DNA from: Heptranchias perlo
Lineage: Eukaryota
Assembly (NCBI RefSeq): GCF_035084215.1
Contig: NC_090351.1
Span: 11,532,001-11,596,000 of the forward strand
Length of the DNA stretch: 64,000 nucleotides
Reading direction: 5' to 3'
Shown here: one piece after another, positions 11,661-59,894 of the stretch
Layout of the letters: every line of letters begins with the position of its first letter
How positions within the stretch are numbered: position 1 is the stretch's first letter
Program-made: the position numbers and the translations under genes
Notes under the pieces: model-generated
What the model was told of the DNA's origin: nothing
Database searches by the model: none
The model's input: only the letters and a program-made list of their open reading frames with translations

Positions 11661-12079
11661 GGCAATGCCTCAAACTTACACAGAAGTACAAAATTTGTGT
11701 TGTAGTCAAAATGATATTCAATGTAAATCCAGTTCGACATCCCTCCAAGTGAAGTATTACAGTTATAATGAACATTCCAAGAGATTTAGAATCCATTAAC
11801 AGAAATCAACTGAAAAGCCCAATTGCAAAGTAAAAATACCATTGCGATATACAATCACAGGTGAAAAAGTTATCTCCCAGTCCCTTTTGATATAAAGTTT
11901 TATCAAATTTCCTGGGTTACAATGTTGCTCTTCTACCATAAAACCTATTTCATAGTGCAAGCACCGACTAGTCAGAGCCTATTGCTCACACCCCGTTACT
12001 CAAACATTACCAAGCCTGTTTGTGTGATACCAATACTAGAAATGAAGGTACGATTATTGTTCCCCATTAAATTCGTTCA

Positions 12080-12460
12080 CTTGAACCGGCGGCTGTACCT
12101 GTCCCAGTTTTCAGTCTCTGTCTGTCTGTTTGCCGGCCGGCTGGCCGGCGAGCCAACCAAGTCGACTCTCTAGGTTGCCGCTCAGCTTCGCCCGCCCCGG
12201 AGCCGCGTCTTTTGCCCAGTGGTCTGGAATTGAAAGAACGAAAGCAGCTTTTAAACAGTGATCGTAGGCCGGAGACAGCAGTCACCCGCTTGTGGGTCCC
12301 GGTTTGTGTCCCCAGGCCCGGCTTCGTCTCCTCTCAGCTGCCACCTCGCACCCCGACCGTATCAAATGCGCCCATTGGCCCTCGGCCAGACCCTCAACCG
12401 CTAATCATGAGCGCCCGTGATTGGCTCCTCTCCACGCCTCCGCCTACAACTGCATTCTGA
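12080..12460 (-). promoter_or_regulatory. CpG-island promoter and probable non-coding first exon of the BAK1-like gene
   Basis: CpG-rich in an AT-rich background; two minus-strand CCAAT boxes (ATTGG near 12374 and 12420); candidate minus-strand donors near 12098 (CAG|GTACAG) and 12285 (G|GTGACT). Confidence 0.6.
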
Positions 12461-13379
12461 TTCGCTCCTAGCAGAAAATAGGCAAAAACAAAAGGACAAA
12501 AAAAGAAAGCTGTACATGCAGGAGGCTGCTTCCTGGTAAATGCCAGGAGTAAATAAAAGCGCTCATGAGGAAACGCAATCATTAACAAACCAATGGCCGC
12601 CGAAAAATATAATTAAAAAAAAGAAAACCAAACCCGCAAGATGAAAGTCTTAATATAAAAGTTCCAACAAATGGCAGACCATTCTGCCTTGGCCGAGAAC
12701 TGAATCAACTCAAAAACTGTTCAATTGAGTGATAAAATCCTATTAAGAAAATGTCCATATAAACAAAGGTCACTGCCCTTATTTAGCTTATCACTCATTT
12801 TGTAATTACTACTCAATGTTCAGTCAACATAAACATTGCATAAAAAAGATATAACTTGTTGCATTTATAGTACTTTCAACATTCCAAGAGGGTGTATACA
12901 CGCACCTTGCAAGTGTCACATATACTTCCTGAATTACTTTTCCCATCATGCCGATACAATATCAATTCATACTTACCATATACAGCCCCCACCACTTACA
13001 CTATTTTTACTTACACCATCCCTGTTTATCCCAGACACACACCGATATCGGGCAAATGGCTCTAGCCATTTTCCATTACCATAGGCATTAATTACAAAAG
13101 CGCCATGTAAACCGTATTAAGCGGGCCAGCTATTTCAGGCAGTTCAGCAGATGTTTGCACCTCGTTATAGTGCGATTACCTGTCATTAGGTCTTGTGGCA
13201 GTTGTATTATTGCATTTGCCTGCTGTCACATTTGATCTATTCCCCAAATAGAAAGCATTGCAAGAGAAAGCAACAGGCGTGTTTAAAGGGGCAATCTTCC
13301 CTTCATTCTTGGTAATTAGGTTTGATAATGATTCTGCACACAAGACTATTGAACTTTTAATGACCAATTTATCTCAGAG

Positions 13380-13830: not shown

Positions 13831-14049
13831 AAGTCAGCATGCTAGTTCGCAACATTTCTACAATTAATATTTTTTGGATATGAAAAAATGTGATTTTTGT
13901 AAAAAATCCTTTCATTTCTATATCTGTGCATCAGTTACACAGGTTACTGGAAATGCCACTTTGGCCATTTCTCTGCAACTCTTGCAGATTATAATGCTTT
14001 TACTAAGTTTTGTTTTAAAAAAAGTTTCTTTCTCCCCAAATTTAGAATT

Positions 14050-14075
14050 AAGATAGATAGATAGATAGATAGATA
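14050..14075. repeat. (GATA)n microsatellite
   Basis: About 6 AGAT units. Confidence 0.9.
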
Positions 14076-14488
14076 TAGTATTTACAACTTCCAGTAAACT
14101 CCAAAACGTCAGAAGGTGGTGTTAAGTCCAAGCGCACCAGGAGATACACGGCAGAGGCAGCTTGAATCACCGCCTGCCAGCTACAGGTTGACTGGCTGCA
14201 CATTCTGACAGTACAACTGCTGATTCTGCATTGGTGCAAACTATCTGGTCACTGATACTCTTATGCAGTTCAGAGACAGATAGGGCAAAGTCAGGTGCAT
14301 GTTACAAACCCTTAGCTTAGTGAAGTCAGAAGATAGTAACCTTAAAAACAAGAGTCAGCTGCAAAATGCCATCAGCAGCATAGTCCACAAAATTTTACAA
14401 TGGTATAGTATGGGGCAATTTTCAGATGTACAATAATTTTACCACCTGGTTGTTGCTAAGCAGACAACTTTGGTATTACCACTAGACT

Positions 14489-14580
14489 GTATTATCTGAA
14501 ATAGACCTAATACAGTGGTATCAGATTATCACCCCTGAAGTTCAGGAGTGATAATCTGACACCACTATTTCAGATAATAC
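14489..14580. repeat. Compact imperfect palindrome (hairpin/MITE-like)
   Basis: Outer arms GTATTATCTGAAATAG / CTATTTCAGATAATAC; inner arms AGTGGTATCAGATTATCACCCCTGAA / TTCAGGAGTGATAATCTGACACCACT. Confidence 0.8.
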
Positions 14581-15032
14581 ATTATTGCAGAAAAGGCCTG
14601 GTCAAAAAAGCACTTCCAATTTCTGCTTTTTAAAGCAGTGTACTTATTTCAGCACCATAGAGTCCAATTTAAAGTAGATTTTAATATTTTCTACAAGTGT
14701 ATTATAAATAGGTAATGAATCTTCAACATCTAATTTTGTTGTTAAAGCTCAGCAAATCTGTTATATGAACCACGAGGCAATCTAAATTATACTTTTGTAC
14801 ATTAAAAGCTCATATATGTGCATAACTACTCACTGTTACTTTATCTGACACTAGTTTTTGTCCTCTCCTTCCAAAAAAAATTCTGCCCTCCTTTCCTGAG
14901 CATGCTTGGTAAGGTTCCAAAGTGCCAACTGCCCACCAATAGTTTACCCAGCAGCCATTCTTCACATTTGAGCCTAAACAAGGGTCAATGTGGCTCAGTT
15001 GATAACACTCATCTTTGCGTGACCAGATTGTG

Positions 15033-15810
15033 GGAGAACGCTTACCCGAAGATCAGTGGCTGAATGTCCTTGACTGCTGAAGTGTTCCCCGACTGGGAGG
15101 GAACCCTCCTGTCTGGCAATTGTTGCGCGGTGTCCGTCCATCCATTGTCGCAGTGTCTGCATGGTCTCGCCAATGTACCATGCTCCGGGGCATCCTTTCC
15201 TGCAACGTACGAGGTAGACAACGTTGGCCGAGTCACAGGAGTATGAAGGGTACTCTGTTGGTTGCGTCCCGTGTTTGTCTTCTGAGGAGGTCTATGCGAT
15301 TTTTCGCTGTGGCCTGTCGGAACTGTCGATCGACGAGTCGAGCGTCATATCCCGTTCTTACGAGGGCGTCTTTCGGTGTCCATCGCGTTCCTCCTCGTCT
15401 GAGCAGATCCTGTGTATTCGCAGGGCCTGTCCATAGGGGATGGCCTCTTTGATGTGGTTAGGGTGGAAGCTGGAAAAGTGGAGAATCGTGAGGTTGTCCG
15501 TGGGCTTGCGGTAGAGTGAGGTGCTGAGGTGCCCGTCTTTGATGGAGATTCGTGTGTCCAAGAAAGAAACCGATTCTGAGGAGTAGTCCATGGTGAGTTT
15601 GATGGTGGGATGGAACTTGTTGATGTTATCGTGTAGTCTCTTCAGTGATTCTTCGCCGTGGGTCCATAGGAAGAAAATGTCGTCGATGTATCTGGTGTAT
15701 AGCGTTGGCTGGAGGTCCTGTGCAGTGAAGAAGTCTTGCTCGAACTTGTGCATGAAAATGTTGGTGTATTGGGGTGCGAATTTGGTCCCCATGGCTGTTC
15801 CGTGTGTTTG
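15033..15810 (-). mobile_element. Penelope-like element (Neptune-type), inverted truncated copy: RT core plus part of GIY-YIG, with an internal deletion
   Basis: ORF 15358-15792 MGTKFAPQYTNIFM...YTRYIDDIFFLW...TSLYRKPTD...IPYGQALRIHRICSD; 15033-15247 is the reverse complement of about 16250-16464. Confidence 0.9.
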
Positions 15811-16629
15811 GGCCTACAGACGCTGAAAGACGCCCTCGTAAGAACGGGATATGACGCTCGACTCGTCGATCGACAGTTTCGACGGGCCACAGCGAAAAAT
15901 CGTATAGACCTCCTCAGAAGACAAACATGGGACGCAACCAACAGAGTACCCTTCGTCGTCCAGTACTTCCCCGGAGCGGAGAAACTGCGCCATGTTCTCC
16001 GCAGCCTTCAACAGGTCATCGATGACGACGAACACCTCACTAAGGCCATCCCCACGCCTCCACTACTCGCCTTCAAACAGCCACCCAACCTCAAACAGAC
16101 CATCGTTCGAAAGCAAATTACCCAGCTTTCAGGAGAACAGCGTCCACGACACCACACAACCCTGCCACGGCAACCTCTGCAAGACATGCCAGATCATCGA
16201 CACAGATACCACTATCACACGAGAGGACACCACCCACCAGGGTACATGGTTCATACTCCTGTGACTCGGCCAACGTTGTCTACCTCATACGTTGCAGGAA
16301 AGGATGCCCCGGAGCATGGTACATTGGCAAGACCATGCAGACACTGCGACAACGGTTGAACGGACACCGCGCAACAATCGACAGACAGGAGGGTTCCCTC
16401 CCAGTCGGGGAACACTTCAGAAGTCAAGGACATTCAGCCACCGATTTTCGGGTAAGCGTTCTCCAAGGTGGCCTTTGAGACACAAGACAACGCAAAATCG
16501 TCGAGCAGAAATTGATAGCCAAGTTCCGCACCCATGAGGACGGCCTCAACCGGGATCTTGGGTTCATGTCGCGCTACACGTAACCCCACCAGGGGAAAAA
16601 AAAAGTTATCTGTTTTTAACACAACTGGT

Positions 16630-16850
16630 CATTCTCTCTCTTTCTCTTTCTTTCCCCTTTCCCCTCTCCCCTTTTTCCCTCTCCCCTTTTTCCCTCTCCC
16701 CTCTCCCCTTTTTCCCTCTCCCCTTTTTCCCTCTCCCCTTTTTCCCTCTCCCCTTTTTCCCTCTCCCCTTTTTCCCTCTCCCCTTTTTCCCTCTCCCCTT
16801 TTTCCCTCTCCCCTTTTTCCCTCTCCCCTCTCCCCTCTCCCCTCTCCCTC
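16630..16850. repeat. Pure polypyrimidine tandem repeat, 15-bp unit CCCCTTTTTCCCTCT
   Basis: Directly visible, about 220 bp of C/T only. Confidence 0.95.
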
Positions 16851-16897
16851 TGGAATCTTACAACACCAGGTTATAGTCCAACAATTTTATTTTAAAA

Positions 16898-16934
16898 TCA
16901 CAAGCTTTCGGAGATTATCCCCTTCGTCAGGTGA
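16898..16934 (-). ncRNA. Minimal type I hammerhead ribozyme motif (Penelope pLTR)
   Basis: Reverse strand reads TCAC-CTGACGA-AGGGG ATAAT CTCC-GAAA-GCTT-GTGA. Confidence 0.8.
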
Positions 16935-16938
16935 AGAT

Positions 16939-16975
16939 TCACCTGACGAAGGGGATAATCTCCGAAAGCTTGTGA
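16939..16975 (+). ncRNA. Minimal type I hammerhead ribozyme motif (Penelope pLTR)
   Basis: Stem I TCAC/GTGA, core CTGACGA, stem II GGGG/CTCC, GAAA, palindromic stem III AGCT, cleavage triplet CUU. Confidence 0.82.
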
Positions 16976-17245
16976 TTTTAAAATAAAATTGTTGGACTAT
17001 AACCTGGTGTTGTAAGATTCCTTACATTTGTCCATCCCAGTCCATCACCGGCATCTCCACATCATCTCTTTCTTTGGTTCTGGCCGTTTGTATATTCAGT
17101 TGTCTGGGGTATCTAAGGTTTCTCTGTCTGAACACTATTCAATTAATTTGATGGCCTTGATAACGGGCAGTTGGAAAGATTATCTGTAATCACCAGGCAT
17201 TGTTCTATGACTATATATGCGGTAATTTTCAATGAATCTCGACAC

Positions 17246-17282
17246 TCACCTGACGAAGGAGAAAGCCTCCGAAAGCTTGTGA
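17246..17282 (+). ncRNA. Minimal type I hammerhead ribozyme motif (second pLTR copy)
   Basis: TCAC-CTGACGA-AGGAG AAAGC CTCC-GAAA-GCTT-GTGA. Confidence 0.82.
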
Positions 17283-17372
17283 TTTTCAAATAAAACAGTT
17301 GGACTATAACCTGGTGTTGTAAGATTCCTTACATTTGTCCACCCCAGTCCATCACTGGCATCTCCACATCTT

Positions 17373-20300
17373 GGCTTTATAAAGCCAAGGATCCCAAATG
17401 CTTTTTTTTTTAAACAGGCTTCTCAACTTGTCCTGCCACCTTCAAAGACTTGTGTACGTAAACTCCAGGTCTCTCTGTTCCTGCACCCCTTTAAAATTAT
17501 ACCATTTAGCTTATATTGCCTCTCTTCATTCAGCCTTCCAAAATGCATAATTTCACACTTCTCTGCATGAAAGTTAATTTACCACATGTCCTCCGATTTC
17601 ACCAACCTGTCTATGTCCTCCTGAATTCTGCTACTATCCTCCTCACGGTTTACTACTTTTATGAGTTTGGTTTCATCTTCAAACTTTGAAATTATGTCAT
17701 GGATTCCCAAGTCCAGGTCATTAATATATATCAACCTAATACAGATCCTGGGGGACACCACTGTATACTTCCCTCCAGTCTGAAAAACAACCGTTCCCCA
17801 CTATTCTCTGCTTTCTGTCCCTTAGCCAATTTCGTATCCACGCTGCCACTGCCCCTTTAATCCAATGGGCTTCAATTTTGCTAACAAATCTATTATGTGG
17901 TAATTTATTAAACACCTTTTGAAAGTCCATAAATATATCAACCCTCTCCGTTACTTCATCAAAGTACTCAAATCAAGCTCGCCAAACACTTGCCTTTAAC
18001 AAATCCATGCTGGCTGTCATTGATTAACCCATGTTTTTCCAAGTGACAATTAATTTTGTCCCAGATTATTGTCTCTTAAAGTTTCCCCACCACCGACGAT
18101 AGTCTGACTGGCCTGTAGTTACCTGGTTTATCCCGCTCCCCTTTTTTGAACAGGGGTGTAACATTTACAACCCTCTGGCACCACACCCGTCTCCAAGGCG
18201 AATTGATAAATTGTCACCAGAACCTCTGCTATTTCCACCCTTACTTCCCCCCTCAACAACCATCTACCTTGAGCACCGCCAACCTTTTAAGTACCTCTTG
18301 TATCTATTTTTATCCTTTCCAATTTCTCTACCATGACATTAGCAGCATCCTCTTCTCTTGTGAACACAGATGCAAAATGCTTATTCAGTACCTCAGCCGT
18401 GCCCTCTGCCTCCACAAGAAGATCTCCTCTTTGGTCCCTAATCGGCCCACCCTTCCTTTGACTATCTGTGGGCCGAATTTTGCTGTAAAAATAATGGAGA
18501 GACTAACAGCGCTCACTACTGTTTATGTGCAAATCAGACAGCAACTTCTGGCAACTGCACAAGCGCAGTTAAACGCGGAAATCCAGAAGTTGCTTTCCGA
18601 GATGCCCTGCTCCTCCAAAAGCTGCACGAAAATGGCGACTCACTGGTCAAGTGTATTGAACAGTGTGAAGTTCCTGTTCTTACCTCATAGATACGTACTA
18701 AACTCGACAAAAAAAGTTAGAGCTTGTCCATTCCAGTGCAAGTTCCTTTTTAACGGCGTGATTAGTCTTAATTACTGCCAAACAACCTCTCTGGCACTGA
18801 AAATTAACTTTTACTAGTGTGGCGTCTCATTGCATCAGCTTTTAATTATTTTTGGAGATTTAAAAAAAATTTAAATAACTTGTTTTGTTACATTTTCTTT
18901 CTGTCTCTTTTATATCTCTCTCTTAATCCAATCTTTCTTTCCCTCTCTTTACTTTGCTTCCTGTGCCTGATTTGACATTGAATTCACTATTCTAACTGAC
19001 AATTCCTGGTTCAGACGCTGCGCTCCTCATTAATGATTCTTCAATCTGATTGGTTAAGGAGATACACAGTTGTTTCACACAGGTCCCAGATGTCCTGTAG
19101 AGGGCGCTGCACTTTTTGGCTGGTTGGCTGATAGCGACTTGCCGTGCAAAAGCCCACAGACAGTCTATGGGCAAAGGCAAGTCTAACGGACGGCTAGCAC
19201 CGCCAGTTCGCTTTTCAAAGCAAAATCCAGCCCTATATGTTCATAAAATACTTCAGTGTTCCCTTTTATGTTACCGCTAATCTATTCTCATACACTCTCT
19301 CTGCCCCTCTTATTTCCTTTTCCAGTTCCCTGCACTCTGTATTCAGCTTGGCTGTCTACTGCATTATGAACCTGACATTTATCATAAGTCTCCTTTTCCT
19401 GTTTTATTTTAATTATCCAGGGAGCTTTAGCTTTGGATATCCTTCCTTTACCCTTCGTGGGAATGTGTCTAGTCTGTACCCAAACTATCTCCTCTTTGAA
19501 GGCCTCCCATTTCTCATTTATTGCTTTACCTGCCAATCTTTGATTCCAATCCAGCAGGGCCAGATCCCTTTTCAACTCACTGAAATTAGCCCTCCTCCAA
19601 TTGAGTATTTTTACGTTTGATTGTTCCTTATCTTTTTCCATAACTACTCTAAACCTAGTGATATAGTGATCACTGTTTCCCAAATGCTCTCCCACTGAAA
19701 CATGCTCCACTTCATTCCCCAGAACTAGATCCAGCACTGTATCCTTCTTCGTTGGGCTGGAAACACACTGATCAAGAAAGTTCTTGTACACATTTCAGGA
19801 ATTTTTCCCCCTTTACACTGTTATTTTCCCAGTCTATATTAGGATAATTGAAGATCTCCATTATCACTACCCTTTTGTTTTTGCATCTTTCTGAAATTTG
19901 CGGCTCTATCTCCTTCCCACTGCTTGGTGGCCTATATTATACACCCAGCAGCTTAACAGCTACTCTTCTGTTCCTTAACTATACTCAAATAGATTCTATG
20001 AACCCTGAAGCACATCATCCCTTTCCAGGGCTGTAACAGCATCTTTGATCAATTGTGCCATGCCCCCTCCTTTTTATTTCCCCTTCCCTATTTTTCCTGA
20101 ATACATTGTAGCCAGGAATATTAAATTTCCCTTCCTCCCCTTGTTTGAGCCAGGTCGCCATTATTACCAATATGTCAATTTATACCTGCAGTTCACCAAT
20201 CTTATTTACCACGCTCCGTGCATTTACGCACATGACCTCCAAACCCACCTTAGTCTGCCTTGTATTTCTCCCCTATCTGATCCCTCCTATTTCTGAACAA

Positions 20301-23000: not shown

Positions 23001-23779
23001 CTGAAGAGGAGGATATTGTAACCTAGTTATGTTTGAGAATTGTTGTATTGGTCCTTGAGAAGTTAATGAGTGAATGGCAGGGTAGGTGTGCAAAATGTAC
23101 AAACATTTTTGACCCACGAAGTATAGAACCAGCCACCCAGTCCATCATGATCACCAGATACCCATTTACTAACCAAGCCATTTTGGGAGTCCAAAACATC
23201 TTTACATTAAATGGTTTTCTATAGCTTATTAGATAGGACTGGGTGTCATAAAATTAAACATTTAAAGATTTTTTATTCCAGATTTCAGCCATGCTTCCAG
23301 GATGACAGCACTACCAGCAAAGATGAAAACAGAAAACAATAAACCAGAGTGAGAAATCAAAAGAAAAAAAAATTGCAAATGCCAGAAATCACAAGTAAAA
23401 TTATTTCAATCAGAAATCATCACTATGTCTTGTTATAATGCCCAACACACTGAATATGTTGCAAGGCAGGATGTCTCAGCGTTGTGCTACCCTCAGACCA
23501 ATGAAGTCTCGCTCATTTCGGTTTAAATATTAAACTCATTTTGATTTGATACATCACACTCCTAAAAACATACACGACTCCAGATAACAAAACAGAAAAT
23601 ACACAACAGGACGGTCAGTTGGTGAAAAGACTGGTGAACGTTTTGGGCAGAGACCGTTGCTCTGAAGGAACTCCAAACCTTCCAGCTCTTTCCTTTCTAA
23701 CACGACAGCAGAATGCATCAAAAAGCGTTTCCGATCCATCTCACTCTATTCCATCACAAATCTTACCACTAACCGTTTC

Positions 23780-24130
23780 ACCGTTGTTGACAGTTCGAGT
23801 TAACCCGTGCACTCGCCCACACGTTTACAAGCGGTAACCGTTGGCAAAAGAAGCCGGCACTGCAGCTCTACTCCCGCTCGCAGCCTCGTCCCGAGGGCAA
23901 ACACCACGCGCTGCATCACGGGATATATCGGGAGGCCAAACTGGGCTGGGGGGGGGGAAACTACAACTCCCATGATGCCGCTCGGGCACGCGTGCGCAAA
24001 GGGGAAAGGAACCGGTTTTGCTCGGTGCGCATGCGCATTGGCCCTTGCACCAGGCCGGCCGTGGAGGCTGCCTCGGTTTGATTGAGGTGAGTTGTCAGAT
24101 CTTCGTGTTTCGCGGCCAGGCCTTCCCACA
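23780..24130 (+). promoter_or_regulatory. TTLL1 CpG-island promoter with ZNF143/SBS-type and NRF1 motifs
   Basis: ACTACAACTCCCATGATGC at 23960-23978; perfect NRF1 palindrome TGCGCATGCGCA at 24026-24037; donor-like GAG|GTGAGT at 24087. Confidence 0.75.
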
Positions 24131-24150
24131 TTTCGTATTTCATTAATTAA

Positions 24151-24291
<141 letters not shown>

Positions 24292-24959
24292 TGAGTGGAG
24301 CACAGGTACTGCTTTGTGCTTTAAATTAAGTTATCATTCATTTGGTATTACGTCTTGAGATTTTTAAAAGGATACTTTCTGCTAAACCGATGCTTGGGAC
24401 ACAGGAGGAGCTGCCCCTGGACACTCCGGTTGCCCCTGTGAGTGCTTAATGTGGTCACCGCTCATGCAGTGTAGTCAGCAGCATCCCTGTGCAGCATCCC
24501 CACCCTCACACTCTGTAACAACCTGCCAGATGTCAGGCTCTCTTTGTCCTTCTAGTCTTCCCTTTCTGTACTTGTGCCTCTCTTTTGATCTTGTCTACAT
24601 CTCTATCTGTTGAAGCCTCCCTATCTCTATCAGCTTGTTGCTCTCACGTACTATCCTTCATGTGCGCCACAAGTTTAGCATTGGTGTGAAGTCATTTTAG
24701 CTTTGCACTGATACAAAACGCGTGAAGTATAAATCAGGTGTTAAGGCCTGAGCTGACTCCAAAAACAAAGCGGATTGCAGACAATGTGAAGGGTAATTCA
24801 CCTAAGCAACTATTGAGCAATAAAATTATAAACATAAAAACACTGGCACAACCACCACTTTGGTACTTTCCTGATCAACCTTTTTGGGTACAGAAAAAAC
24901 AAACAACAATGTCTGCGAGCAGGAGTTATCTGCGTGAGAGCTCCTCTTCCAGGGAATCT

Positions 24960-27474: not shown

Positions 27475-27804
<330 letters not shown>

Positions 27805-30988: not shown

Positions 30989-31201
<213 letters not shown>

Positions 31202-37423: not shown

Positions 37424-37986
37424 TAAAAAAAACAGAAAGAAATCAATGCTTCATGGTGGAGGGAAAGTCACTTTGAGTAGGTACTTTGCAATTAATATGA
37501 GCATGTTTACTCTTCGAGCACTGTGTGGGAAGGATTCTTCTATGTTGTTCACTTGAGGTGGGCATGCTCCAACAATGTCAAGGGATAAAATCAGAATGTT
37601 TTAAATATGAATGTAGCTGCTGTTTCTAGATAAATGAGAAACATTTTTTTCTGAGTTAGTTTTAAAATAAAACTGGTTCTGATCAGTCTGAAAACAGACC
37701 AGCTGCATTGATATTGTTCCATGGTGATTCCTGTGGCTGATGTCATGCAAGCATGCCCACTTCAATTCCTCAACAAAATGACTATGTTCTGAGCTCTTTG
37801 AAGAAACCCTATAGAGACAGATTGTTTGTAAAATCATGACTTTGAAAAATCACCACAAATTACTTATTTTTAGTCGCCTTCTTTAAGATAAACATCTTGC
37901 AAATGGATATTTAATTTTCGCTTTAATTACCATCACTTGCTTCATTTAGCGATGACACAAATTAAAAGGTAGAAGATGTTTCTTAA

Positions 37987-38282
37987 CCTGTCCCATTACC
38001 ACCTTCCTTGCCTGCACCATCATCCCTTTTGTCATTTAATCACTCGTGCCCCCTACCCTATCACAGACCTTCCCTTTTGTTCTTTCCTCCCCTCCCCTCC
38101 CCTCTCCTCCCTCCCCTCCCCCCCCCCCACTTTCCCTGGCTCTGTACTTGCTCAAAAACTTAAACTCCTTTAACATCTTCCAGTTCTGACGAAAGGTCTT
38201 CGACCTGAAACGTTAACTCTGTTTCTTTCTCCACAGATGCTGCCTCACTTGCTGAGCTTCTCCAGCATTTTCTGTTTTTATA
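37987..38282 (+). mobile_element. Penelope-like 3' UTR/pLTR fragment (second PLE family)
   Basis: Closely similar to 52505-52765; contains a hammerhead motif. Confidence 0.8.
38182..38218 (+). ncRNA. Minimal type I hammerhead ribozyme motif
   Basis: AGTT-CTGACGA-AAGGTC TTC GACCT-GAAA-CGTT-AACT; stems I and II intact, palindromic stem III ACGT. Confidence 0.8.
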
Positions 38283-51960: not shown

Positions 51961-52034
51961 TCAGATAACCTAGCTGCATCAGCATGATCAAGATAGACTA
52001 TGGACGACCTTGGCAATGGGGTGAAACGGAAAAC

Positions 52035-52071
52035 AGTTAACGTTTCAGGTCGATGACGCTTCGTCAGAACT
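52035..52071 (-). ncRNA. Hammerhead motif with imperfect stem II
   Basis: Reverse strand reads AGTT-CTGACGA-AGCGTC ATC GACCT-GAAA-CGTT-AACT. Confidence 0.65.
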
Positions 52072-52795
52072 GGAAGAAGAAAGATTAAACAGTTTTTAAG
52101 CAAGTACAGAGCCAGGGAAAGGAGGAAAGAACAAAGGGGAAGGTCTGTGATAGGGTGGAGGGCAGGAGTGATTAAATGACAAAAGGGATGATGGTGCAAG
52201 GCAAGGAGGGTGGTAATGGGACAAGTAAAGAAACAAAAGGTGGGTCTAGAGATGTAAATGGCAACAGTAGAACCATTACCAGCACCTGCTGTCTGAAAAA
52301 AATGGAAGCAGTGATTATGATCAGAGGTTACTGAAATCCAGGAAGTCCAGAAGGTTGTAAAGTGCCGAATCGAAAGATGAGGTGCTGTTCCTCGTGCTTC
52401 CGATGAGCTTCGCTGGAACAGTGTAAGAGGAGAGGACAGAGAGGTCAGATCATAACCACTGCTCCCATTTACAGCTCCTCTAGACCCATCTTTTGTTTCT
52501 TTATTTGTCCCATTACCACCCTCCTTGCCTTGCACCATCATCCCTTTTGCCATTTAATCACTCCAGCCCTCCACTCTATCACAGACCTTCCCTTTTGTTC
52601 TTTCCTCTCCCCCTTTCCCTGGCTCTGTACTTGTTTAAAAACTGTTTAATCTTCAATTTGTTCCAGTTCTGACGAAGTGTCATCGACCTGAAACGTTAAC
52701 GGTCTCTTTCTCCACGGATGCTGCCTGAATTGCTGAGTATTTCCAGCATTTTCTGTTTTTATTTCAGATTTCCAGCATCTGCAGTATTTTGCTTT
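52039..52795 (+). mobile_element. Penelope-like insertion with inverted 5' arm, flanked by a 17-bp TSD
   Basis: TGAAACGGAAAACAGTT (52022-52038) and TGAAACGAAAAACAGTT (52796-52812); minus-strand GIY-YIG C-terminus LLHCSSEAHRKHEEQHLIFRFGTLQPSGL near 52340-52430; arms about 52036-52270 and 52460-52700. Confidence 0.85.
52666..52700 (+). ncRNA. Hammerhead motif with imperfect stem II
   Basis: GTT-CTGACGA-AGTGTC ATC GACCT-GAAA-CGTT-AAC. Confidence 0.62.
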
Positions 52796-58108: not shown

Positions 58109-58798
58109 TTACGGGCTGATTAAAATATAAACGTCACTCACAACCATTACCCTTATAACTTCTATGATGACAACACAACCTTATTTTGGTTTGGATCAAT
58201 ACACAACAGTAACGGAGAAGCCTGTTTTGAGCTGGATGTATAGGAATCTTGTCACACAGGTGCTGTTGCCGCTTCAGCTGGAAAGTGAGGCTTAATAAAA
58301 TAACCCCGAGAATGCCCATTATTAATTGCTACGGACACAACCTTACCATAAAAAAATGTACAAAACCATTACCAGCTTCTCAACATAGATCCTTTCTGCC
58401 TGGGGCCTTCAGGGTAGCAATTCTGCAATTTTGTTTTTTATTCCTATCTACCCCTATGATCTTCATTTTTTCTTTCCCCAGTTCATTTTTCCTGACACAA
58501 TGACTCAAGGTGAATGTGTTCGCCAAGCCCTATTTGACCTCAGGGTAAAAAAAAAACAAGAGTTGACAGACATGTCATCTGGAAAGAAAGGCCCCATCGA
58601 GAAATCTGCAACCATTATTCCAAATCTGCCTACTTCCCGATGGTATTGCACTAACATTAGGCACAGGAACCAATGAAATAGCAGCACTGCAAAATGAAAA
58701 TTGATTATAAAGTGCTGTGTTTAAATGTACATAATTGGAGCCCCAGTCAAGCTTGTATGCTTTTGGCAATTGAGGATTAAACATGAGTAATGTTTTAC

Positions 58799-58973
58799 CT
58801 TTAGGCCTTGGCCTGGCAGTCTCAGGACGGGTCTGACGACGTAGAGTAGCAGGAACAATTTCTGGAGGAAGGTGAAGGTAGTCACGCAGGTACTGGATGC
58901 CCTCATTAGTCAAGTACCAGTAGAAGTGCCGCCAAGCAAACTGCTCCTTTACGTAGCCACGAGATTTCAAAGA
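58799..58973 (-). CDS. RPS10: RPS10 coding exon 2
   Basis: [58 protein letters not shown]; CAG/GTAAAA. Confidence 0.97.
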
Positions 58974-59894
58974 CTGCACATCAAGAACAATTGGGGGAAC
59001 TTTAGTGTCAGATTTTCCCAACTTGTTTTTCAAAATGATTCCTTCATGCATAACACACAACAGGATTCTGAATCATTGGCTCCGGTAAAGCAAACTAAAG
59101 AGACAGACATGCAGCTTTTGGGCTAAAGCAGGAATCAATCGTTTTGTTCTAATATCCAAGGTGTACTTTCCCTTGTTACCAGTCTAATTCTCAAGTTACT
59201 AGTTCATATACTGTAATGCATAGGTTTACAAACTGGCATCCCCAGAACCTAAATGATCCATGAGATAGTCCACCAGGTCATCAGATTTCTGTTTTCAACC
59301 GTAGGGTTTTTAAAACTTATTAACACATTATTTCTGTTGCTGCATATTAATTCAAAAAAGTTCTCTGCCATGATTGGACTATTTTCTTTTGGTAACTGAC
59401 ACTGTCTTTTTGAATTGAGGCAAAGGTATCACCAGGACTGTATCAATATTTGGAGGAATGAGATAGAATGCTGTTGTGAATAGATATTTCTGTGGTTACT
59501 CAAGACTGCTGCTGGTAGATTCCTCCTTTTTAAGTTTCTTTCCTTTTTCTATTGCTGCTTGTTAATTCTGGCTACAAATGATGAACTGGAGTTCAATATT
59601 GTCCCTTGTATGAATCTCAGGCTATACATTCACTGCTCCGGATTTCTCAAATATTTTCTGCTGGTCTTCATCTGAGCACCTTGGACTAGTGGAATATTCT
59701 ACCCACGAGTCCAGAATACCCTCAAAGCACTTCAACAGTCATTAGATCTTTGCAAAGATTGAATAACTGATGAGGTATGTATGTGCTATCTTTTGATTAC
59801 TTTTGTAAAAAAAAAATGGAATAATGCAGGACAGCATGCAATCATGCCGAATTGGAAATAGCATCTATGGCTGAACTTGCCTAAGCTTTTGTTA

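Follow-up and report, generated by a model that had tools for sequence, protein, structure and literature searches.

A perfect palindrome with two hammerhead motifs in Heptranchias perlo as a probable truncated Penelope-like element insertion nested in its own family

The locus and its features

The window, a 64,000-nucleotide stretch of Heptranchias perlo DNA, contains a perfect palindrome (Table 1) located about 7 kb upstream of the start of a plus-strand TTL-family gene. The apparent first coding exon of this gene lies on the plus strand in a CpG island (23750–24300), further parts with TTL matches follow at 27505–27711 and 31034–31198, and we take the gene to be TTLL1-like; a minus-strand donor-like site at ~23767 suggests a divergent gene. 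A second CpG island (12000–12500) carries CCAAT-like boxes and is accompanied by a strong minus-strand donor-like site near 12975, these being possible alternative first exons. Pfam identified no host exon in 88 of the 131 minus-strand frames of ≥42 aa in 1–24000, the 43 over evident repeats having been dropped. Exons of a ribosomal protein S10-type gene lie at 58600–59072 and ~50473 on the minus strand (Pfam S10_plectin, E-value 1.5e-25).

Table 1. Features of the insertion and of the older element that hosts it (window coordinates)
Feature	Position	Strand	Remarks
Inverted, internally deleted 5′ copy of older element	15033..15811	-	RT core, then pieces matching 15819–15954 and 16250–16464
Older Penelope-like element, 3′ part of ORF, frameshifted	15812..16583	+	RT C-terminus, linker, GIY-YIG; stop 16581–83
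CX4CxxC linker	~16163–16189	+	From translation of older element's ORF
Minisatellite	16654..16851	.	198 bp, all-pyrimidine, 15-nt unit, 13.4 copies, near-perfect; at insertion site, abuts palindrome
Inverted pLTR stub (left arm), without tail	16852..16935	-	Minus-strand hammerhead at 16934–16898
Spacer GA	16936..16937	.	A aligned to native A17244 of older copy; G has no counterpart there
Sense pLTR stub (right arm)	16938..17021	+	Minimal type I hammerhead 16939–16975; predicted cut after 16971
44-bp tail, sense end only	17022..17065	+	Starts in a short stem-loop
Older element's 3′ UTR, resumed past insertion	17066..17245	+	Exact TATA-type box 17212–17218
Older element's own pLTR end	17246..17370	+	Second hammerhead 17246–17282, plus tail

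The two arms are 100% complementary around a 2-nt spacer (84 + 2 + 84 = 170 bp, 0 mismatches), just as the original prediction described them; the longest perfect arm in 50 local shuffles was 12, versus the 84 observed, and the other perfect palindromes in the 64-kb window have arms of 12 bp at the longest. While the extent of 170 bp is exact for the palindrome, the element continues past it to ~17065 as a right-hand tail, giving an insertion unit of ~214 bp (16852–17065) of which the palindrome forms the 5′ part, and in which an inverted pLTR stub stands head-to-head with a pLTR stub that is followed by the one-sided tail. Neither stub (84 and 128 bp) carries an ORF. The sense arm has 7 mismatches in 83 bp against 17246–17328, and the insert pLTR has 9 mismatches in 125 bp against the pLTR of the older element (116/125 identical), an alignment that includes the tail; the inverted arm lacks this last piece. 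A separate 94-bp palindrome at 14488–14581 is decayed, has no detectable hammerhead core, and has no second copy in the window.

Stem I of the sense hammerhead is formed by 16939–42 and 16972–75, and between its strands lie CUGACGA (16943–49), one extra A, stem II (16951–63), GAAA (16964–67), GC, U16.1 and U17. Both strands encode the identical hammerhead and the palindrome centre lies 1–3 nt 5′ of stem I, so that core numbering upholds the earlier description of a centre directly 5′ of stem I with the same CUGACGA...GAAA hammerhead on each strand. By numbering and predicted fold the motif has the features of a minimal type I hammerhead, i.e., a core of C3–A9, G12–A15.1, U16.1 and H17, an extra base at 9/10.1, a G10.1–C11.1 pair, and a palindromic 15.2–16.2. 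A covariance-type search, which had been put forward as a check on the motif, did not detect it: Rfam returned 0 matches at gathering score across the 64-kb window and 12 weak matches in 14500–18000, none of them a hammerhead. A miRNA precursor was rejected as a candidate, MIR7533 scoring 106 bits against a gathering threshold of 230 and matching by pairing only. The ribozyme cut was likewise ruled out as the palindrome centre, which lies 33–35 nt upstream of it.

The older element that flanks the insertion has an RT followed by a C-terminal GIY-YIG endonuclease with CCHH-type residues and two cysteines between GIY and YIG (Pfam E-value 1.3e-4, at cutoff), an RVT_1 match in its inverted copy (Pfam E-value 5.2e-5, below cutoff), and a pLTR with a hammerhead at its 3′ end, after the ORF and 3′ UTR. 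Its own head-to-head pair differs by 16 mismatches in 351 bp; the inverted copy has an internal deletion and extends deeper into the RT core than its sense partner (15812–16464). Abutting the outer end of the inverted copy (~14980–15030) is what we take, by resemblance, to be a tRNA-derived SINE remnant. These features, together with an inverted 5′-truncated copy and a one-sided tail, are those of EN+ Penelope-like elements (PLEs), and the non-coding insert is assigned to this family because of its 116/125 identity to the pLTR of the host copy. Anatomy and hammerhead type thus agree with the original prediction of an inverted insertion of a Penelope-like pLTR with minimal hammerheads, and the 9 mismatches in 125 bp with its nesting within an older member of that family. 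A CX2-5CxxC linker upstream of the GIY-YIG is common to Neptune and Nematis and absent in Penelope/Poseidon (PMC8557442), while the PLE clades reported in vertebrates are Neptune and Poseidon only (bioRxiv 10.64898/2026.07.22.740005). On the strength of this one linker motif, which Nematis shares, the older element appears to be of the Neptune type.

The insertion sits in the CT tract of the older element, whose natural order is kept on both sides (ORF to the left, 3′ UTR to the right); Neptune elements have been tied to microsatellite targeting (PMC8557442). Target duplications run to 8–10 bp in rotifer Penelope-like copies and are absent in some. Here the candidates lie in low-complexity DNA, and are either 3 bp (16849–51/17065–67) or 11 bp (16643–53/17065–75), the latter reading placing the 198-bp minisatellite inside the insertion as though made during it. 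Synthesis of the minisatellite by a telomerase-like action of the RT, considered under the 11-bp reading, was left at low odds because a loose end in organism B fits a native CT tract and the 3-bp duplication.

Formation of the insertion

The anatomy of the insertion, its nesting, its family and its hammerhead type are directly observed, and it is probable that the locus is a dead, non-coding, 5′-truncated insertion of a Neptune-type PLE, in the form of inverted pLTR plus pLTR plus one-sided tail, within the CT tract of an older member of its own family. For the route by which it arose we give slightly better than even weight to priming on both target strands. The GIY-YIG nuclease of the element would cut both strands of the target, and the RT would be primed from both target 3′ ends at two internal start sites flanking the tail (17065 and 17021), one cDNA beginning at 17065 from the right target end and the other at 17021 from the left end. 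Both would be copied off uncleaved RNA through the hammerhead, halting at the 5′ edge of stem I, and the joining of the cDNA 3′ ends would yield head-to-head arms that are identical by construction, with the tail on one side only. The hammerheads would be passengers, both being buried in the 84-bp duplex that forms in any read-through RNA. Both arms extend 33 nt beyond the predicted cut, so the template RNA would have been uncleaved. A Poseidon protein was reported to cleave and extend both strands in vitro, to begin reverse transcription at two internal sites delimiting the tail, and to use uncleaved RNA (PMC11167929); this biochemistry is that of a lizard Poseidon element and not of Neptune, and the same source declares the PLE cycle after first-strand priming unvalidated.

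Priming on both strands is also supported by the older inverted pair of the host element itself and by the pair of a second hammerhead family at 52033–52703. The two halves of the latter stand inverted and head-to-head around an unrelated spacer, match at 90% over 246 bp and carry hammerheads at 52067 (minus) and 52669 (plus), and a solo copy of the same repeat lies at 37977–38281 with its hammerhead at 38186 (plus).

The original prediction had explained the palindrome by fold-back, i.e., by self-priming of one cDNA, or of an antisense template, at the centre to make the mirror arm. Such a route has been proposed in print for palindromes at inverted junctions (Arkhipova et al. 2013, PMC3846280), and the centre departs from symmetry by no more than 2 nt; moreover the minus-strand centre matches 7 letters of the older copy upstream (17232–38), which on a template missing the following 6 nt would allow a 3–4-bp snap-back. 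It is possible, and yet by itself it leaves the unequal outer ends, with their one-sided tail, unexplained. The putative cDNA ends fold at merely -1.2 to -2.5 kcal/mol and away from the observed centre, most of the family joints listed from public contigs are asymmetric, and the 6-nt deletion allele at 17240 is absent among the 12 indel rows listed of 21. We therefore place fold-back well behind priming on both strands, and give other routes together slightly less weight still.

The family joints come from contigs of four public runs that we placed on 16836–17480 (645 bp) at 85% likeness. In run X1 alone 39,779 of 38.6 million contigs fall on this stretch, so the family is abundant. There were 205 joints, and among the 15 listed, 14 connect a sense copy with the antisense arm; the left ends of these 14, given in sense-strand coordinates, lie at 16980–16999 (12 joints) or 16960 (two), and their right ends at 16938–17039. 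Their positions are varied and mostly asymmetric, all are more than 3 nt away from the predicted cut, and two begin at the stem I edge, one of them after a single G. For most joints the short side is just 20–25 letters, and many have intervening sequence that is not known. The right junction of the insertion is fixed by family contigs that pass from CT repeats into the native 3′ UTR at 17065. The summed contig depths, which are not copy numbers and carry no weight in our reading, gave ratios of stub to upstream UTR of 4.0, 7.9, 6.0 and 70. In organisms B and C the depth at 16938 was nil, contig absence being weak evidence; run X5, which is only guessed to be RNA, has family contigs and nil depth at 16938 and says nothing either way on expression.

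These contigs also bear on whether the palindrome is a fold-back artefact of the assembly or library. In favour of this, the arms are perfect and adjoin the 198-bp pyrimidine repeat, the exact centre is spanned by none of the 32 contig pieces listed (of 46,144), and the best run contains 0.83 of the sampled words. We consider an artefact very improbable, since the inverted part is short (84 bp) and ends at the tail boundary, and both flanks are in natural order; in addition, independent contigs carry joints of this kind in the family, some of them placed at this same centre with small differences (six with T>C at 16938, one lacking 8 nt at 16936).

Searches of metagenome contigs with the family pattern identified two near-identical loci of a related family (L001 and L002), both without the palindrome, L001 ending at a contig edge; at 596–645 they carry a related hammerhead (about 80% over 47–50 bp), and they are probably animal DNA in environmental samples. 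The family pattern gave 0 matches in viral contigs. The centre pattern matched 23 viral-contig loci, none similar to the element by BLAST, and a loose hammerhead-like regex match in one of the 23 was judged to be chance.

A more tentative reading, which we hold to be possible and rather unlikely, concerns the centre itself: it may be the capped 5′ end of the element's transcript, with the stubs as run-off cDNAs and the spacer G as a copied cap. Transcription from a TATA-type promoter in the pLTR would begin with the A immediately preceding hammerhead stem I, and the RT, starting from the internal tail sites in the 5′ pLTR, would run off after ~128 and ~84 nt, giving products that we liken to retroviral strong-stop DNA. 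An RT can copy an RNA cap as an extra G. The exact TATA-type box of the older copy lies 32 bp before A17244, the base that matches the spacer A; 0.4% of 7-nt windows contain such a site, and the box was spotted after the fact. The second hammerhead family has a CCAGTTC initiator-type site at stem I with a TATA-like box 31 bp upstream of it (measured in two copies), and in one of three copies the box differs from the TATA consensus by no more than one mismatch; the box and the initiator-type site are presumed to be such from consensus motifs. Contigs with unrelated flanks join at 17246–48 in organisms A, B and C, and from this and the TATA spacing it follows that the centre may be a capped start. 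Against this, 12 of the 14 head-to-head joints listed lie elsewhere, two other joints also have a single G, upstream of 17246 the reference is diverged, and L001 and L002 have no TATA box. The Drosophila Penelope promoter is TATA-less (PMC2377424), and a rotifer pLTR with TATA and initiator-like motifs has been published (PMC3846280). Our literature search found neither a run-off proposal for PLE stubs nor a paper on the copying of caps. If true, run-off would account for the abundance of hammerhead stubs, both solo and palindromic; stub boundaries would then map PLE start sites and promoters from DNA alone, and dual-strand priming would become testable by counting thousands of stubs.

Age and folding of the arms

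The insertion is younger than the host copy, as follows from the nesting. Its arms have 0/84 mismatches versus 16/351 in those of the host (p = 0.05), and 0/84 caps divergence below 3.5%, or ~25 million generations if the published shark rate of 7e-10 per generation (PMC10587355) applies. The description of the insertion as very recent is consequently not sustained by a count that permits up to 3.5% divergence, and what can be stated is a relative order only. The insertion might also be older, its arms having been made identical later by arm-to-arm conversion in the course of cruciform or hairpin repair, a proposal that touches age only and is compatible with priming on both strands. Arm-to-arm conversion does occur in palindromes, and the DNA hairpin is very stable (-100 kcal/mol). 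We regard it as improbable here: it is superfluous, because arms copied from one template start identical and the mismatch counts above fit mere youth, and the palindrome at 14488–14581 has decayed.

It had further been suggested that a transcript might switch between a long hairpin, as a substrate for siRNA production or ADAR, and an active hammerhead. The catalytic core is intact in both arms, and the donor-like sites suggest that the locus may fall in an intron of a minus-strand gene. With the left arm removed, the predicted cost is just 1.3–1.8 kcal/mol for the ribozyme fold and +8.4 kcal/mol for a dimer drawn in cis with the 17246 hammerhead. With the left arm present, however, the ribozyme fold is predicted to lie 63.4 kcal/mol above the hairpin on either strand, the corresponding costs being +31.9 kcal/mol where the antisense arm can pair with the older copy instead and +121 for the in-cis dimer. 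Owing to the head-to-head order the antisense arm comes first in any read-through RNA, on both strands. Minimal type I hammerheads of PLE pLTRs were reported to show no cleavage as monomers and little as dimers (PMC4209133), and a review reports likewise (PMC6765202). The centre has no detected promoter motif, and there is no sign of conservation, the nil depth at 16938 in organisms B and C being weak, contig-based evidence. From the arm order, the cost of the fold and the lack of monomer cleavage we judge a functional switch extremely unlikely; in the folding models both ribozyme copies are almost certainly trapped in the hairpin instead of switching. If the site is transcribed, double-stranded RNA (dsRNA) could plausibly arise as a by-product, and a genome rich in such perfect hairpins is a likely source of dsRNA.

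Comparison with known systems

As a single locus this is a minor finding, being one more stub of a high-copy retrotransposon family in a known type of insertion. It is useful as a cleanly preserved record of a single PLE insertion, in which an uncleaved ribozyme was copied and both cDNAs ended at one point. An inverted 5′-truncated copy with a tail at one end is a published layout (PMC8557442, PMC3846280, PMC8969392), and the insertion resembles those of EN+ PLEs (PMC3846280; PMC8557442) in its head-to-head truncated copy, its junction palindrome and its tail at one end, and also in its location, such elements inserting into or beside older copies and their duplications being hard to see in microsatellites. 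It differs from the usual EN+ PLE insertions in that the halves are here stubs of 84 and 128 bp without an ORF, and in that the tail is 44 bp versus the 30–40 bp quoted. The closest biochemical counterpart to priming on both strands is the Anolis Poseidon element PAc in vitro (PMC11167929), whose two tail-bounding RT starts, extension of both strands and uncleaved template would yield this anatomy; PAc belongs to another clade, however, its ORF begins inside the hammerhead, and the formation of inverted junctions is not treated in the available text of that source.

The locus also recalls the non-LTR retrozymes (bioRxiv 10.64898/2026.07.22.740005), as it is PLE-derived and non-coding, with type I hammerheads of which two in sense lie 307 bp apart. 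This spacing is an accident of the nested insertion, and whereas retrozymes are head-to-tail tandem units the palindrome is head-to-head. By the definition in that preprint a non-LTR retrozyme was rejected, there being no head-to-tail array in 14000–18000 and the upstream unit being the insertion without a 3′ UTR part. Finally, the motifs match the minimal type I hammerheads of PLE pLTRs (PMC4209133) in the extra nucleotide at 9/10.1, the G10.1–C11.1 pair, the palindromic 15.2–16.2, the 4-bp stem I, and the absence of stem III. Opposite-strand pairs of such hammerheads 100–700 bp apart are already on record there; unlike those pairs, the two motifs described here, which are known from sequence, abut one another, with 8 nt between their stem I starts and a stem II of 4–5 bp.
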